64,000 nucleotides of DNA from a virus: positions 32,001 to 96,000 of IMG/VR virus record IMGVR_UViG_3300045391_004889; one strand, written 5' to 3'. Shown here in pieces: positions 18,886-44,217 of this stretch. Both the position numbers and the translations under genes were made by a program. A model generated the notes under the pieces. It saw only the letters and a list, made by a program, of their open reading frames with translations, was not told where the DNA came from and ran no database searches. The number at the start of each line of letters is the position of its first letter. Position 1 is the first letter of the stretch.

Positions 18886-19569
18886 ATGACCGTTTGGGCG
18901 CGCAACGACGTGTGCGCGGTGTCCATCTCCCCCGAGCACGGAGGCTGTGGCGAGTCCCACACCCGACCCGTGGTCAAGGGCGCACCCGTCAAGATCTGGG
19001 CACTCACGTGCCACGGCGGCTGCGAGGATCACCTGCGCGGAAACTCGCTCTGGTCTGGCACGCCGCAGGGTGTGCCGGAGACGCCCGACGAGACGGCCAC
19101 CCGTCTCGACGTCGAACGACGCGGGCAGATCGAGCAGCAGGCCACCATGGCAAGCGCGCTCAACGACCTGGCCAAGCTCGGTGACCTGCCGTCGATGATC
19201 GCGCTTTTGGCGCAGTCGATGGCCGGCAACGCCCCACAGCAGCTGACGGGTCAGACGGTTCAGCTCTGCCGCAACGGGCACCGTAACCCGGAGGCCACCA
19301 AGTTCTGCGGGGAGTGCGGGGCGGACATGAACGACGGTGTCGGCAAGGCACCCGTCGCAGAGGTGACCCAGGGTCAGGCCGAGGCGGGCACTCAGCAGGC
19401 TGAGAACGCCTCGAAGTCCGGCATCGACCTGTCCGCCCTGGACCCTGAGACGGCCAAGCTCTCAGACCTCAAGGAGATCGCGGAGCAGGTCGGCGCCCCG
19501 ACCGCTCGCTCCAAGGCGGAGCAGATCTCTCTCATCCAGCAGGCAGTGCAGCAGACCCCGGAAGCGTAA
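18886..19569 (+). CDS. hypothetical protein with Zn ribbon and C-terminal HeH/Rho-N-like helix pair
   Basis: CRNGH...FCGECG; LSDLKEIAEQVG...SKAEQI. Confidence 0.7.
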   Translation: MTVWARNDVCAVSISPEHGGCGESHTRPVVKGAPVKIWALTCHGGCEDHLRGNSLWSGTPQGVPETPDETATRLDVERRGQIEQQATMASALNDLAKLGDLPSMIALLAQSMAGNAPQQLTGQTVQLCRNGHRNPEATKFCGECGADMNDGVGKAPVAEVTQGQAEAGTQQAENASKSGIDLSALDPETAKLSDLKEIAEQVGAPTARSKAEQISLIQQAVQQTPEA

Positions 19570-38538: not shown

Positions 38539-39513
38539 TCAGACCAGAGCCTGGATGCCGGCGACCAGCTTGTTCTGCAGCTTGTCGCCCTCGCCGTGCA
38601 TGATGGACTCGAAGCGGGCGTTGGGCGTCCGCTGCGTCTTCAGGTGGTCCATGTACTCGGTGAAGGCGTTGTACACACCGTAGCCGGTGCCGCGGAAGGG
38701 CTCCACCGTCTCGGACGTCTGGTAGTTCGTGATGATGTCGGCGATCATGTCGTCCCGACGGGCGCGGCGCTCGGGGATGATCGAGTTCAGCATCAGCTTG
38801 ACGCGGTCGTCGCTGACCTTGATGTCGGCCAGCTGCTCGGCCAGCTTCTGGAACTCAGCCTCGTAGTTGACCGAGAGCTGCAGGGCGTTCCGAGCCTCGT
38901 CCACGCGGGCCTTGACCGTGGTGGTGTGAGGGATGGACCAGGAGCTCTTGGCCGAGGCGATGGCGGCACCGTTCTGGTTGGCGCACCACAGCCGGAACGG
39001 GATGATCCGAGCGCTGATGCTGGTGCCGTCACCGTGGCTGGTGCGGATGTACAGGTAGGTCTCGTAGCTGTCGCCGCCGAGGACCTCGAAGCCCTCGCCG
39101 AGCTTCATGACCATGAAGACCCGAGCGCCGCCGTTCTGCTGGCCGGCGACCACCCACTTGCCGGTGCCCTCCTGGACGAGCTCGTCACCGAAGGCGAAGG
39201 CGTCGTGGTTGCTGAAGACCTCGTAGCGGTTGCGAACGGTGCCGAGCTGAGCGCCGGTGTCGGTGCGGAAGACCTCACGCGACTTCGTGGACTGCTCGAA
39301 CTGGTCCTCGCCGACGCGGCGCCACAGCGGGCGGGCTTCCACGCCCCAGTCGAGGCCGGCGGCCTGCAGCATGTCGGCGCTGCCGAGACCCTGCGGGGCC
39401 TCCACGTTGCCGACCATGTTGGTCTGGACCAGGGACTGCCAGGCGGGCACCCGCTTGACCTCGGTGGTCTCGTCGGTCGTCGTGTCGGTGGTCTCGATCG
39501 TGGCCACGGTCAT
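38539..39513 (-). CDS. DUF932 family protein
   Basis: AGLDW.V, R.DTG..LG.V..RY....N, SHGDG, R..CAN, HT motifs. Confidence 0.85.
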   Translation of the reverse strand: MTVATIETTDTTTDETTEVKRVPAWQSLVQTNMVGNVEAPQGLGSADMLQAAGLDWGVEARPLWRRVGEDQFEQSTKSREVFRTDTGAQLGTVRNRYEVFSNHDAFAFGDELVQEGTGKWVVAGQQNGGARVFMVMKLGEGFEVLGGDSYETYLYIRTSHGDGTSISARIIPFRLWCANQNGAAIASAKSSWSIPHTTTVKARVDEARNALQLSVNYEAEFQKLAEQLADIKVSDDRVKLMLNSIIPERRARRDDMIADIITNYQTSETVEPFRGTGYGVYNAFTEYMDHLKTQRTPNARFESIMHGEGDKLQNKLVAGIQALV

Positions 39514-39556
39514 CTGGATCACTCCGTTCATTCGTTCCTGATTGGCTGCTGAGACC

Positions 39557-39585
39557 AATGTATCACATCGTTGTGACAATGTAAA
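39557..39585 (-). promoter_or_regulatory. promoter TTTACA-N17-TACATT with palindromic spacer
   Basis: consensus match; TCACA-acga-TGTGA in the spacer. Confidence 0.7.
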
Positions 39586-39599
39586 CAGCCTGGGTGAGT

Positions 39600-39674
39600 T
39601 GGCTCCCCGCCGAGGATTCGAACCTCGAACGTCACGTCCAGAGCGTGGTGTGTTGCCAGTTACACCAACGGGGA
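39600..39674 (-). tRNA. tRNA-Gln(CTG), CCA encoded
   Basis: cloverleaf; loop CT-CTG-GA; T-loop TTCGAAT. Confidence 0.9.
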
Positions 39675-39679
39675 ACGAG

Positions 39680-39751
39680 GGTGACCGGTGGGACTTGAAC
39701 CCACAACGACCGCGACCACAACGCGACGCTCTACCATTGAGCTACGGCCAC
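39680..39751 (-). tRNA. tRNA-His(GTG)
   Basis: cloverleaf; loop TT-GTG-GT; C73. Confidence 0.9.
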
Positions 39752-39753
39752 AG

Positions 39754-39826
39754 CTCCCTCACCAGGGCTCGAACCTGGGACACCCGGATTAACAATCCGG
39801 TGCTCTGCCGACTGAGCTATAAGGGA
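39754..39826 (-). tRNA. tRNA-Asn(GTT)
   Basis: CCGGA-TT-GTT-AA-TCCGG arm; canonical D and T arms. Confidence 0.92.
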
Positions 39827-39827
39827 C

Positions 39828-39903
39828 TGGCATGCCCGGCAGGACTCGAACCTGCGACCAGTCGCTTTGGAGACGACCGCTCTGGCCACTGAGCTACGGA
39901 CAC
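39828..39903 (-). tRNA. tRNA-Trp(CCA), CCA encoded
   Basis: GTCGT-CT-CCA-AA-GCGAC arm. Confidence 0.92.
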
Positions 39904-39907
39904 ACGG

Positions 39908-39991
39908 CGGAAGAGACAGGATTCGAACCTGCGTGGGTGTTACCCCGCGTCATTAGCAGTGACGTGCCATCAGCCTCTCGGCCACTCTTCC
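39908..39991 (-). tRNA. tRNA-Ser(GCT)
   Basis: CGTCA-CT-GCT-AA-TGACG; long variable arm; G73. Confidence 0.9.
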
Positions 39992-39992
39992 A

Positions 39993-40090
39993 GGCAACCA
40001 GGTGATCAAGCTTCCCACGCAGGGGACGACTCCATCTGTAAGAAGTGGCTGCCACACCACCCCGATGTACGTCGCCCGATCAACCTGGCC
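39993..40090 (-). ncRNA. structured non-tRNA RNA of about 97 nt inside the tRNA array
   Basis: ends pair (GGCCAGGT-T-GATCGG / TTGATC-ACCTGGTT); nested stems inside; no T-loop or anticodon arm. Confidence 0.55.
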
Positions 40091-40093
40091 GAG

Positions 40094-40178
40094 CAGAGGG
40101 TGTAGGATTCGAACCCACGGAGCTGTCACACTCTACGGTTTTCAAGACCGCCGCCTTAGGCCACTCGGCCAACCCTCC
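40094..40178 (-). tRNA. tRNA-Ser(TGA)
   Basis: GCGGT-CT-TGA-AA-ACCGT; long variable arm. Confidence 0.9.
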
Positions 40179-40179
40179 G

Positions 40180-40254
40180 TACCACGCCCCGGATTCGAAC
40201 CGGGAACATCCTGTTCCTGAGACAGGCGCCTCTACCAAGTTGGGCCAGCGCGGC
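40180..40254 (-). tRNA. tRNA-Leu(CAG), short variable loop
   Basis: CCTGT-CT-CAG-GA-ACAGG; A73. Confidence 0.85.
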
Positions 40255-40270
40255 TTGTTCAGTTGTAGCG

Positions 40271-40341
40271 TGGTGCACCCAGGATTTGAACCTGGACGGG
40301 AGTGGTTTACAGCCACGCCGACTCAACCAGCGCTGTGCACC
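40271..40341 (-). tRNA. atypical tRNA-Tyr(GTA)
   Basis: acceptor GGTGCAC/GTGCACC-A; loop CT-GTA-AA; T-arm CCAGG-TTCAAAT-CCTGG; degenerate D-arm; no long variable arm. Confidence 0.65.
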
Positions 40342-40345
40342 CTAG

Positions 40346-40419
40346 TGGCGGGAGCGGGATTCGAACCCGCGACCTCAGGGTTATGAGCCCCACGCGCTAC
40401 CGAGCTGCGCCATCCCGCT
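40346..40419 (-). tRNA. initiator tRNA-fMet(CAT)
   Basis: CAT anticodon; three G-C pairs closing the anticodon stem; 1:72 mismatch (A-C). Confidence 0.88.
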
Positions 40420-41668: not shown

Positions 41669-42925
41669 CTACGCCGCGGCGAGCGCCTCTTCCTGCTGCC
41701 GCTTCCACACGGGCTTCCAGTCCATCGACACGTCGATGAGCTTGTCACCCTGGTCGAGCTCCTCGCCCGTGTAGGTACCAGGGTTACCCTCGAGGGACGC
41801 CTTGACCCACTTGAGGAGCCATCGGGCCGGCGCGACTGAGGTTCCCTTGCCCCAGAACGCGTGCAGGCTGCTGGCGTCCTTGGCACCCTCGATCAGCCAG
41901 TCGTCGGGGAAGCCCATGATGCGAGCGACCTCGCGATGCGTGGCGAACCGCTGGTTGGGGTGCCACACCATGTACGGACCGGCACCGTTGACGACGCGAG
42001 CCGGCTCACTCCACGCCCAGTGGCGAGGCTTGCTGAAGCCACCCGCGTCGAAGTTGCGAGCGATCAGCTGGGCGTCCCGGGTGGTGGTGCCCTTGGCGGT
42101 CGGGTACTGCCACGACTCCGGCAACTGGCCGTACGTCTCGTAGTACCGCTTGAGGACGTGTGCCTCACTCTCGCCCGGCTTCCACTCCACCGAGGCGAGG
42201 TCCATGACGCGACGTGAGTACGCGTTCTCCGCCGGCACGTGACCGTCCACCTTGCCGCTCTCGGAGCGCAGGGACTCGCTCCACCAGGTGGGCTCCTGGA
42301 GGTACGGCTGCGCCGACCAGCTGATCGGCTGGTCCACCAGGTCGCGAAGCGCGTCACCCAGGACGGGCAGCTTGTCACCCAGCGGGTGGTGCTCCACGCC
42401 GAACGGGAACTGGGTCAGCACGAGGAAGTAGCGCTTCCGCTTGCTGACGCCGCCCACCGACCAGTTGTTCTGCAGCACGTGAGTGACGTGGTACTTCAGC
42501 CCGGTGTGCTCGTTCATGTAGCGGCCGAGCTCCCGCATGAGTGGCAGGCCCTTGGTGTACGCCTGGGCGACCGACTCCATGCAGACGAACTGCGGCTTGA
42601 CCTTCGCCGCGTACGTCATGATGTCGCGCATGCAGTTGTTGATCTCGGAGTCCATGCCGTGCATCTTGGAGCCGGCCGTCATGGACGAGAAGGCGCTGCA
42701 GGGTGGCGTGCCGATGACGCCGTCCGCCTCGATCGGCGTCCACTCCGCGGGCAGCGAGGCCTGGGCCTGCCACTCGTTGCCGAGGAGCTTGCGGTTGGCC
42801 TCCATCAGCGGGATGCCGAACCCCTGCTTGTTCTCCTTCTTGCCGACGAGGGTCATGCCCTCCTGCGCGGCTCCGCAGGAGAAGCCACCTGCGAAGCCGT
42901 AGACGTCGACGAACTTGATCGTCAC
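41669..42925 (-). CDS. divergent C5-cytosine DNA methyltransferase homologue
   Basis: motif I VDVYGFAGGF, IV GTPPCSAFS, VI MESV, VIII SKRKRYF, IX REVARIMGFPDDW, X WGKGTS. Confidence 0.85.
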   Translation of the reverse strand: MTIKFVDVYGFAGGFSCGAAQEGMTLVGKKENKQGFGIPLMEANRKLLGNEWQAQASLPAEWTPIEADGVIGTPPCSAFSSMTAGSKMHGMDSEINNCMRDIMTYAAKVKPQFVCMESVAQAYTKGLPLMRELGRYMNEHTGLKYHVTHVLQNNWSVGGVSKRKRYFLVLTQFPFGVEHHPLGDKLPVLGDALRDLVDQPISWSAQPYLQEPTWWSESLRSESGKVDGHVPAENAYSRRVMDLASVEWKPGESEAHVLKRYYETYGQLPESWQYPTAKGTTTRDAQLIARNFDAGGFSKPRHWAWSEPARVVNGAGPYMVWHPNQRFATHREVARIMGFPDDWLIEGAKDASSLHAFWGKGTSVAPARWLLKWVKASLEGNPGTYTGEELDQGDKLIDVSMDWKPVWKRQQEEALAAA

Positions 42926-42933
42926 GTGCTCTC

Positions 42934-44217
42934 CTAGCTGGCGCCGAGCGCCGTGAGGAACGTACGCGCCACAGCCTTGGGCGCGTGCTTGGTGGCGAGA
43001 ACGGTGCGGTTGCGCTGGGCGATCGTACGGCGCTGCGCGGTGTTGAGGGTGAGGATCTCCTCCACCGCCTCCCCGATGCCCTCCAGAACCTCGTGCCATG
43101 CCGGCTGGTTGGCCAGCTTCGACTCACCGGGCCAGGACGGCACGGACTCGAGAGCGCGACCCTCGAAGTCGTCGCTCCACATGGAGCTCACCGACACCTG
43201 CATGCAGCCGGCATCGATGGCCTCGAACTGGGAGTACTCCATGCCGTCCGAGAACTCGGAGGCGGTGAGATCCACGTGCACGTCCAGGTTGCGGCAGGCG
43301 TCGAAGCCCGACTCATAGCCACCCTTGTACTCGATCTGGGTGCCGCCAGGCGCGGTGACCTCCCAGAGGTACGGCCGGATGACGTCACCACCGGTCTCCG
43401 TACGCTCACCGGGCTTGATCACCCCGTGACGGATACCGGGAAGCGACAGCGGCTTGCCCAGCACCATCGCCTCGAAGGTCTTGTACGTGGCGGACGCGGC
43501 GAGGCTGAGAGAGGAGGCACCCCAGAGCTGGACGCGATCCGCGGACGGCATCAGGTCGAGCGCCGCCGCCATACCGAGCGCGTGGTGACCCTTGGTGGTG
43601 ATGTACCGCCCGGTGATGCCCACCACGTCGTTCGTCGCGTGACCGGCCAGCAGGTGAGAGTCCGGCTCCGTCTGCATCCGGTACGGCAGCGGCGACACCG
43701 TGAAGTCCACGTCCGGCCAGAGGTGACGGGACAGGTTGGGCGACGTCGGGGAGTGCGTCACCGCCGTGCCGAGGAAGTTCGGCCGCGTGAGGAGGTCCTT
43801 CACGTATGGCACCTCGCTCGGCGGGTAGTTGTTCCCGTGGAGCGCGAAGATGAACGGCGTCTGAGTGGCGGCGAGAACGTTGAGGTACTCCGGCGTGTCG
43901 GGGTCGAGGTAGCTCTTCCCCTTCGCCGCCTCCTTGTCCTGCATCACCGTGCGCACGTCGGTGAGAACGATGCGGTCGTACTGATCCAGCACGTAGCCGG
44001 CGTCCCGAAGACGGCCCACCACGTCGGGTGACCGGCCCCACCAGCGGATGCCCGGTCGCATGTTGCCCTCGCCCCAGACGGAGCGTGCCTTGCCGGACCG
44101 GGTGAAGGTCACCACGTCCGCCTCGTGTCCGTTCTCACGGAAGCCGTCGCGCAGGTGATACGCCCAAGCCATCGGGCCGCAGACCCGCGGCTCCGGTTCG
44201 AAGATGGCGATCCTCAT
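42934..44217 (-). CDS. GT-B glycosyltransferase (candidate DNA base glycosyltransferase)
   Basis: MRIAIF...G N-terminal strand; GRYITTKG; DGMEYSQFEAIDAGC resembling the GT4 E-x7-E motif. Confidence 0.75.
   Translation of the reverse strand: MRIAIFEPEPRVCGPMAWAYHLRDGFRENGHEADVVTFTRSGKARSVWGEGNMRPGIRWWGRSPDVVGRLRDAGYVLDQYDRIVLTDVRTVMQDKEAAKGKSYLDPDTPEYLNVLAATQTPFIFALHGNNYPPSEVPYVKDLLTRPNFLGTAVTHSPTSPNLSRHLWPDVDFTVSPLPYRMQTEPDSHLLAGHATNDVVGITGRYITTKGHHALGMAAALDLMPSADRVQLWGASSLSLAASATYKTFEAMVLGKPLSLPGIRHGVIKPGERTETGGDVIRPYLWEVTAPGGTQIEYKGGYESGFDACRNLDVHVDLTASEFSDGMEYSQFEAIDAGCMQVSVSSMWSDDFEGRALESVPSWPGESKLANQPAWHEVLEGIGEAVEEILTLNTAQRRTIAQRNRTVLATKHAPKAVARTFLTALGAS

Follow-up and report, generated by a model that had tools for sequence, protein, structure and literature searches.

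A structured RNA with a tRNA acceptor-like end encoded in the tRNA arrays of distantly related phages

An RNA gene between two tRNA-Ser genes

The stretch of DNA analyzed here (the window, 64,000 nucleotides) comes from an IMG/VR phage genome of 107,985 bp, which has terminal repeats, and spans its bases 32001-96000. According to ARAGORN and Rfam, its minus strand carries nine tRNAs at 39600-40419. They are set 0-15 nt apart with a single exception, the 101 nt (39992-40092) between tRNA-Ser(TGA) and tRNA-Ser(GCT), and the anomalous gap pointed out in the initial annotation was thus confirmed by measurement. A simple promoter scan found neither promoter nor terminator within this array. A DUF932 protein is encoded immediately downstream of the array (38539-39579, minus strand) and a C5 cytosine methylase homologue upstream of it (41669-43099, minus strand); neither is common to the Streptomyces phage Quantum, which is considered below.

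The gap contains an element designated el0, whose sequence as quoted earlier was correct on recheck. The element, its parts and its two neighbours are listed in the 5' to 3' order of the tRNA strand, with positions of the window.

40093..40178 (-): tRNA-Ser(TGA), the upstream neighbour, 2 nt before G1 of el0
39993..40090 (-): el0, structured RNA gene of ~98 nt, supported by MFE and z-score and by CM matches in homologues
40083..40090 (-): P1, 5' strand, GGCCAGGU, pairs with 39996-40003
40078..40081 (-): P2, 5' strand, GAUC, preceded by a bulged U at 40082, pairs with 40004-40007
40071..40076 (-): P3, 5' strand, GGCGAC, bearing the conserved GNCG motif, pairs with 40025-40030
40033..40067 (-): P4 arm, two-segment helix of 12 bp, its 3' side bulged by 5 nt at 40037-40041, a purine-rich internal loop beneath
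40050..40055 (-): apical loop of P4, GUGGCA, with an invariant U-G closing pair; its UGGC core complements the GCCA tail
40025..40030 (-): P3, 3' strand, GUCGUC, pairs with 40071-40076
40014..40024 (-): P5, short hairpin CCC-loop-GGG at the three-way junction
40008..40013 (-): junction strand AAGCUU from P5 to P2, of which the 6-nt length is kept and the sequence partly
40004..40007 (-): P2, 3' strand, GAUC, pairs with 40078-40081
39996..40003 (-): P1, 3' strand, ACCUGGUU, pairs with 40083-40090
39992..39995 (-): unpaired 3' tail GCC and a U; homologues encode GCCA
39906..39991 (-): tRNA-Ser(GCT), the downstream neighbour, beginning 1 nt past the GCC tail of el0

On the tRNA strand el0 has an MFE of -46.6 kcal/mol (z = -3.33), a value equalled by none of 200 dinucleotide shuffles, against -31.0 kcal/mol (z = -0.86) on the opposite strand. 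Moreover, each copy of the RNA described below contains 6-7 G-U pairs, which would become A-C mismatches if read on the other strand. Both observations uphold the initial view that the structure is formed at the RNA level and on the tRNA strand. The individual helices named at that time are all present in the MFE structure, and the homologues preserve them except for the GG/TT extension of the closing stem.

The same fold is found in all three copies, and for el1 the MFE structure is the consensus itself. P1 (8 bp) and P2 (4 bp) form a terminal helix of 12 bp in each copy, which is interrupted in el0 only, by one bulged U. In P1 the G1-U and G2-U pairs are invariant in the three lineages, and pairs 3 and 8 change on both sides, as do three of the four pairs of P2. 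A single unpaired purine links the terminal helix to P3, which has 5-6 bp across the copies, two of its pairs being compensatory. Seven of the 12 P4 pairs show double-sided changes, the bulge varies both in sequence and in length (5-7 nt), and the apical loop is invariant apart from A/G at its final position. P5, a hairpin of 3-4 bp with a small loop, comes directly after P3. The resulting three-way junction, with its long bulged arm (P3-P4) and short hairpin (P5), stands in the position of the T loop of a tRNA.

The element is present in a single copy in the whole 108-kb phage genome (CM search R2, 111 bits). Neither gathering nor permissive thresholds gave an Rfam family for el0, and a search with 114 nt only at E <= 10 was likewise negative. 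ARAGORN, run with introns permitted, with lowered scores, and in the mitochondrial and tmRNA modes, called neither a tRNA nor a tmRNA in it. Neither a known family nor a decayed tRNA, the two outcomes for which the initial annotation had left room, was therefore matched. The ORFs that run across el0 extend over tRNAs as well and are spurious.

Homologues, covariation and distribution

A full-length homologue, el1, lies between tRNA-Arg and tRNA-Ala at 89139-89235(-) of IMGVR_UViG_3300048904_000313 (G001). This uncultured 107.5-kb IMG/VR phage was reached via PolA, which is 75% identical to that of the present phage. The two elements have 67% identity (blastn E 8e-6), and a CM built on el0 alone retrieved el1 at 53.8 bits with no other match in either genome. 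The two tRNA-Ser genes of G001 are 1 nt apart and have no insert between them. With a two-sequence CM we detected a third copy, el2, at 125752-125847(+) of Quantum (56.6 bits), where it begins 1 nt past tRNA-Phe and ends 2 nt ahead of tRNA-Gln. Quantum is a distant phage, its PolA being 24-26% identical and only ~7 proteins being shared with the present phage. The el2 sequence recurs at 100% identity in the Streptomyces phages Kradal and EhyElimayoE and at 98.2% in Satis (L204; Satis 126087-126197). The Satis copy has two base changes compared with Quantum; through the first a G-C pair of P4 becomes G-U, and the other places an A opposite G6 and breaks one pair of P1. Without exception the copies are unannotated and situated within a tRNA array, directly next to tRNAs and on their strand. 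The length of the homologues is steady at 96-98 nt.

Further searches were done at several levels. Using blastn and megablast against GenBank phages, el0 and its 20-kb surroundings gave only a 32-nt tRNA-Ser match and one chance match. Patterns, both exact and degenerate, were scanned for in IMG/VR, JGI metagenomes and GTDB genomes; judged by eye, by global alignment and by CM, the matches other than G001 were all due to chance. Related loci were sought with the flanking DUF932 protein, which gave nothing, and with PolA, which gave one close and one distant relative. At the level of CM, no host homologue was found in 5 + 151 Actinomycetes genomes (R2), and the searches were also negative in 13 other actinophages, in the partial uncultured viral contig G002, in Bxz1 and in T4; the last of these searches (R3, with T4 among its targets) was run at stricter filters. 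Together the elements make up an RNA family that had not been described before and is missing from the RNA databases searched.

How well has the structure been preserved along these lineages? In the three-sequence alignment 33 pairs are kept and 98% of the cells are standard pairs. Fifteen of the 33 pairs change on both sides yet stay paired, a covariation given by three independent sequences, two of them from related phages, in an alignment fitted to the structure. When the 3' partners were slid as a control, pairing was 28-58% and the number of such pairs 1-5; the observed values of pairing and covariation were not attained in any of 500 shuffles. RNAalifold recovered the same structure independently, with a covariation term of -7.1 kcal/mol. 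Homologues with compensatory changes, which had been named initially as the check on this element, have thus been found. Covariation over three phage lineages, together with a full GCCA encoded in two of the three, bears out the earlier proposal of a discrete structured RNA with an acceptor-like end, and we consider it very probable that el0, el1 and el2 are members of a real structured RNA family with such an end.

The same data bear on the idea that the element is a decayed tRNA gene or another remnant with its fold left over. Its acceptor-like stem, GCC tail and place in a tRNA array agree with such an origin, as does the pair-breaking change in Satis. However, 15 compensatory pairs and 98% pairing have been retained between phages with PolA only 24-26% identical, the lengths are steady at 96-98 nt, and there is no trace of D, anticodon and T arms, all of which makes a remnant extremely unlikely.

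The distribution of the element was also informative. In the soil metagenome run X3, one contig carries positions 39917-40088 unchanged. A second contig of this run has 1 difference in 159 nt and joins 39991 to 40092, skipping exactly 100 nt; in this element-less variant the two tRNA-Ser genes are 1 nt apart, as in G001. Of the sampled words, RNA-labelled runs contained only about 6%. The flanking tRNAs differ by lineage, being Ser/Ser, Arg/Ala and Phe/Gln. Since Quantum is so distant and yet carries el2, either the RNA has, like tRNA genes, been transferred horizontally, or it is old and was frequently lost. Judging by these comparisons of sequence, its gene appears to be a mobile, dispensable and discrete accessory cassette.

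A presence/absence polymorphism with exact borders, and positions that vary between arrays, would also suit an element that acts as DNA, that is, a recombination or insertion cassette in which the inverted repeats are protein-binding sites. The fold is strand-asymmetric, however; the G-U pairs are conserved, compensatory changes pass through G-U, and on the opposite strand the 6-7 G-U pairs of each copy would turn into A-C mismatches. We give a DNA element next to no credence and treat the cassette below as a gene for an RNA.

The acceptor-like end and the loop complementary to it

The terminal helix, at 12 bp, is as long as the acceptor and T stems of a tRNA combined. Beyond the helix an unpaired G precedes CC. 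The complete GCCA is present in the DNA of el1 and el2; el0 has only GCC, the unpaired end noted in the initial annotation, before a U and the opening base of the adjacent tRNA. In comparison with tRNA (RF00005), the acceptor features (paired ends, unpaired discriminator, CCA) are present in the form of a G1-U72-type helix, the unpaired G, and CC (el0) or CCA (el1, el2). The cloverleaf with its D arm, 7-nt anticodon loop and T arm is not, and RF00005 gave no match at E <= 10. The lack of T-loop, D-loop and anticodon arm noted at the outset holds for the whole conserved structure, in agreement with the negative results of ARAGORN and RF00005.

The leaders before el0, el1 and el2 are 2, 11 and 1 nt long and the trailers past GCC 1, 5 and 2 nt long, which is the spacing of the tRNAs in these arrays. 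Some of the neighbouring tRNAs encode CCA and others only part of it. The stack of acceptor and T stem with an RCC tail is what RNase P reads, and the acceptor branch of tRNA is also read by the CCA-adding enzyme. Because the element sits 1-11 nt past one tRNA and 1-5 nt ahead of the next, release by tRNA processing can be expected, and we suppose that the RNA is probably excised by the tRNA processing machinery. It would be co-transcribed with the tRNAs of its array, and an RNase P cut at G1 would make its 5' end. The 3' end would arise from the RNase P cut for the next tRNA, followed by trimming and by the action of the host CCA-adding enzyme; no CCA-adding enzyme is encoded by the carrier phages. 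The predicted product is a stable RNA of ~97-99 nt with a tRNA-like CCA end and unable to decode.

Could the element instead be a cis-acting structured spacer, which guides or times the processing of the polycistronic tRNA precursor? It is embedded in the array without its own promoter or terminator, and RNase P would be drawn to a stable helix bearing an RCC tail. But the tRNAs of the array, normally 0-15 nt apart, do not require any such spacer, the neighbours are different in each lineage (Ser/Ser, Arg/Ala, Phe/Gln), and the element-less variant keeps its tRNA-Ser genes 1 nt apart. In addition, the invariant loop and junction sequences point to specific recognition, so that a spacer appears very unlikely. 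Even less probable, and hardly credible to us, is a functional though very unusual tRNA, or a molecule like tmRNA, which would be charged with an amino acid and admitted to the ribosome. The 12-bp acceptor branch, the discriminator G and CCA would be in its favour, and tRNAs with unusual 8/4 and 9/3 branches do occur in bacteria and phages (PMC5389517). Yet there is no 7-nt anticodon loop, T arm or tag reading frame, ARAGORN was negative, and tmRNA (RF00023), with its T arm and tag reading frame, was found neither by ARAGORN -m nor by Rfam.

The closest known kind to this probably excised, non-decoding RNA are the small stable RNAs of the T4 tRNA region, RNAC and RNAD (species 1 and 2). They too are small non-tRNA RNAs in a phage tRNA cluster, encoded on the tRNA strand and adjoining tRNAs, and the arrangement of RNAC/RNAD type, with a non-tRNA RNA gene inside the cluster on the same strand, is exactly what is seen here. 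The T4 RNAs have 139 and 119 nt and no sequence or model similarity to the present RNA, R3 finding nothing in T4, and homology to rnaC or rnaD was thus not detected. RNAC has a canonical T arm (GGUUCGAAUCC) beside its 3' end; this arm is absent here and a three-way junction takes that place. The roles of RNAC and RNAD are still undefined (PMC3014915, PMC9697503).

More generally, the tRNA acceptor-T minihelix, the tRNA-like domain of tmRNA and the plant-virus TLS have in common with this RNA a 12-bp coaxial helix, an unpaired discriminator and CCA. Unlike them, it contains neither a T loop nor an acceptor-building pseudoknot and is capped by the three-way junction. While tmRNA, viral tRNA-like structures and YrlA mimic tRNA via a T arm or a pseudoknot, the present RNA keeps nothing but the 12-bp branch and the CCA end.

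The invariant core of the P4 apical loop, UGGC, is the exact complement of the GCCA tail. With flanking bases the loop-tail duplex comes to 6-7 pairs and -6.6 to -9.6 kcal/mol. The probability of UGGC in a random hexaloop of the same composition is 0.017, for a complementarity that was spotted after the fact. As loop and tail are both invariant, covariation cannot test their pairing. Two U residues able to extend the pairing are held in P1 by conserved G-U pairs only, which, taken with the complementarity, points to self-capping of the CCA end or to capture of NCCA ends in trans. This suggests that the UGGC loop may cap its own GCCA tail or bind the NCCA end of a tRNA with discriminator G. The T-box bulge (UGGN) and loop L15 of RNase P (GGU) pair with tRNA NCCA ends, and their pairing logic is the same as that of the UGGC loop against GCCA. 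The likeness is one of mechanism, with no homology and no Rfam match, and here the complementary tail is the RNA's own.

Co-occurring proteins and possible role

All three carrier lineages encode a TROVE/Ro60 protein. That of the present phage (579 aa; G000:C1:12461-14200 (+), L013 541-2280) is encoded outside the window and is closest to that of Quantum (41.8%). Three other proteins are likewise common to Quantum, and the set held in common is largely of RNA-repair type. The first is a HAD_SAK_2 phosphoesterase of 182 aa, 52% identical (G000:C1:15566-16114 (+), L011 7567-8115), whose family PF18143 bears the label "HAD domain in Swiss Army Knife RNA repair proteins". The second is a vWA protein of 426 aa, 40% identical (G000:C1:8341-9621 (-), L011 342-1622), and the third a PNKP-type HAD phosphatase, also 40% identical (G000:C1:23911-24723 (+), L011 15912-16724). 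The remaining proteins common to Quantum are terminase, PolA and dCMP deaminase.

The HAD_SAK_2 protein was present in 3/3 carrier lineages versus 0/14 phages without the RNA, a co-occurrence that represents about two independent lineages and that a shared transferred block would produce as well. For the vWA protein strong matches were obtained in carriers only, whereas the PNKP-type phosphatase is more widespread. In G001 the genes of Ro60 and of both HAD proteins lie with el1 on one strand within ~10 kb. Eight phages encode Ro60 and do not have the RNA. Phage TROVE proteins and 3'-phosphoesterases have been interpreted as components of RNA repair that act alongside a tRNA-like partner (PMC7824862). 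In the carriers we found no RtcB and no Rnl-type RNA ligase, and since a CCA-adding enzyme is also missing, no complete phage repair pathway is visible.

If Ro60 accompanies the RNA in every carrier lineage, then we can ask: Is the RNA a Y RNA? It would then be a ligand of the phage's own Ro60, tethering or gating this protein for RNA quality control, and the Y-like RNAs upstream of the Ro60 gene would be its relatives. Besides the presence of Ro60 in all three lineages and its best match in Quantum (41.8%), this is consistent with the position of el1 in G001, 3.2 kb downstream of Ro60 on the same strand, with the size of ~100 nt and with the long stem formed by both ends, as in Y RNAs. Short Y-like units of these phages are likewise found between tRNAs. 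In all three copies P3 starts with GNCG(A/C)(C/A), one base off the bacterial GNCGAA motif, and YrlA of M. smegmatis is cut by RNase P and receives CCA (PMC4201824).

However, the full motif GNCGAA(N0-1)G (PMC4201824) is not present: GGCGACG, GCCGACA and GUCGCAG, which lie 14-21 nt from the RNA 5' end, are each one base off. RF02553 and RF00019 did not reach the Rfam gathering score on el0 and gave no match even at E <= 10 in the 114-nt search, and the conserved structure has no T-loop or D-arm hairpin as in the tRNA-like module of YrlA. The Y-like signature of this phage (GRUGYGA past the closing stem and CUCR ahead of it) is absent from el0, and no Y-like unit was among the top blastn matches of el0. 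The Ro60 gene lies within a few kb on the same strand in G001 only; in the present phage and in Quantum it is 58 kb and 39 kb away, respectively, and on the opposite strand. The eight phages with Ro60 and without the RNA also argue against this role. Known Y RNAs (YrlA/YrlB, RF02553; Thermus phage Yrl1/2) do resemble the present RNA in the ~100-nt size, in the end-to-end stem, in a CGA motif in the 5' half and in being encoded by phages with Ro60, but here CGAC/CGCA replaces CGAA, the T/D arm module is missing and the Ro60 gene is usually far away. Of the Y-RNA-like role proposed initially there remains the Ro60 of all carriers, while the Rfam models, the GNCGAA motif and, in two of the three lineages, the proximity of Ro60 have failed. 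We regard a Y RNA as rather unlikely.

Several Y-like sequences were observed along the way. Upstream of Ro60 there are weak YrlA-like matches (33.7 bits, below the gathering score) at L011 3214-3280 and 3678-3747, and a further one is found at L011 10448-10562. Additional structured inter-tRNA gaps are found in the relative phage at G001:C1:88850-88980 and 94246-94341; among them, the 96-nt Asp-His gap holds a short unit of Y-like kind, with GUGUGACG ... CUCGG enclosed by a closing stem of 9 bp. Paralogy with Y-like unit 3, which has ACAUCGGGGU and ACUUCU in common with el0, was considered and rejected: neither these stem strands nor the 10-mer common to el0 and this unit are kept in el1 and el2, which indicates chance.

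We return to the RNA as a non-decoding mimic of the tRNA end that tRNA processing would release, which we consider the likeliest reading. It keeps only the part of tRNA that is read by RNase P, by the CCA-adding enzyme and by many toxins directed at tRNA ends. The co-occurrence with Ro60 and RNA-repair-type phosphatases, together with the presence/absence polymorphism, points to a role in the contest of phage and host over the translation apparatus. The family may well consist of non-coding phage RNAs in which just the acceptor branch of tRNA is copied, and which are processed by the tRNA machinery and take part in an RNA-damage conflict, where they would serve as ligand, decoy or platform for a factor recognizing tRNA 3' ends. 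A role at tRNA 3' ends in RNA damage and repair is our best-supported guess. That the RNA acts via its CCA end or its loop on such a factor is a tentative proposal. A more specific one, which we think unlikely, is that a self-capping tRNA-end mimic forms a new RNA-protein device with HAD_SAK_2, vWA and Ro60. In such a device the UGGC-GCCA pairing, eased by the weak G1-U and G2-U pairs, would toggle between a hidden and an exposed CCA end. The device would sense, soak up or help to repair host attacks on tRNA 3' ends, or would capture NCCA ends in trans. If true, a CCA-complementary loop would represent a novel means by which small RNAs deal with tRNA 3' ends.

To our knowledge, non-decoding tRNA mimics such as RNAC and RNAD of T4 and the Y RNAs have had no defined function for decades. 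As the present RNA occurs in cultured, tractable Streptomyces phages (Satis, Quantum, Kradal and EhyElimayoE), its expression, ends, partners and phenotype are directly testable.

Phage tRNA arrays are usually annotated as tRNAs and spacers, and here a spacer is a conserved RNA gene. Other gaps of these arrays were also found to be structured. In the present phage, the 134-nt gap between tRNA-Lys and tRNA-Phe (G000:C1:19141-19274 (+)) folds with -69 kcal/mol and has an 8-bp end-to-end stem, a T-arm-like hairpin right before the 3' strand and a CCA tail; it is a further tRNA-ended RNA, differently designed. The gaps at 18926-19066 and 19349-19439 of G000:C1 are also strongly structured. Two ARAGORN calls nearby look doubtful, namely a permuted tmRNA with a 20-residue tag at G000:C1:18263-18777 and an overlapping 73-nt "tRNA-Ser(tga)" without a long variable arm at G000:C1:18734-18806. 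In Quantum, an unannotated 267-nt gap between tRNA-Arg and tRNA-Asp (125183-125449; L190 1684-1950) begins with an acceptor strand and D arm and ends, after ~190 nt, with a T arm and acceptor strand. It resembles a tRNA that a long insertion or an intron has interrupted.
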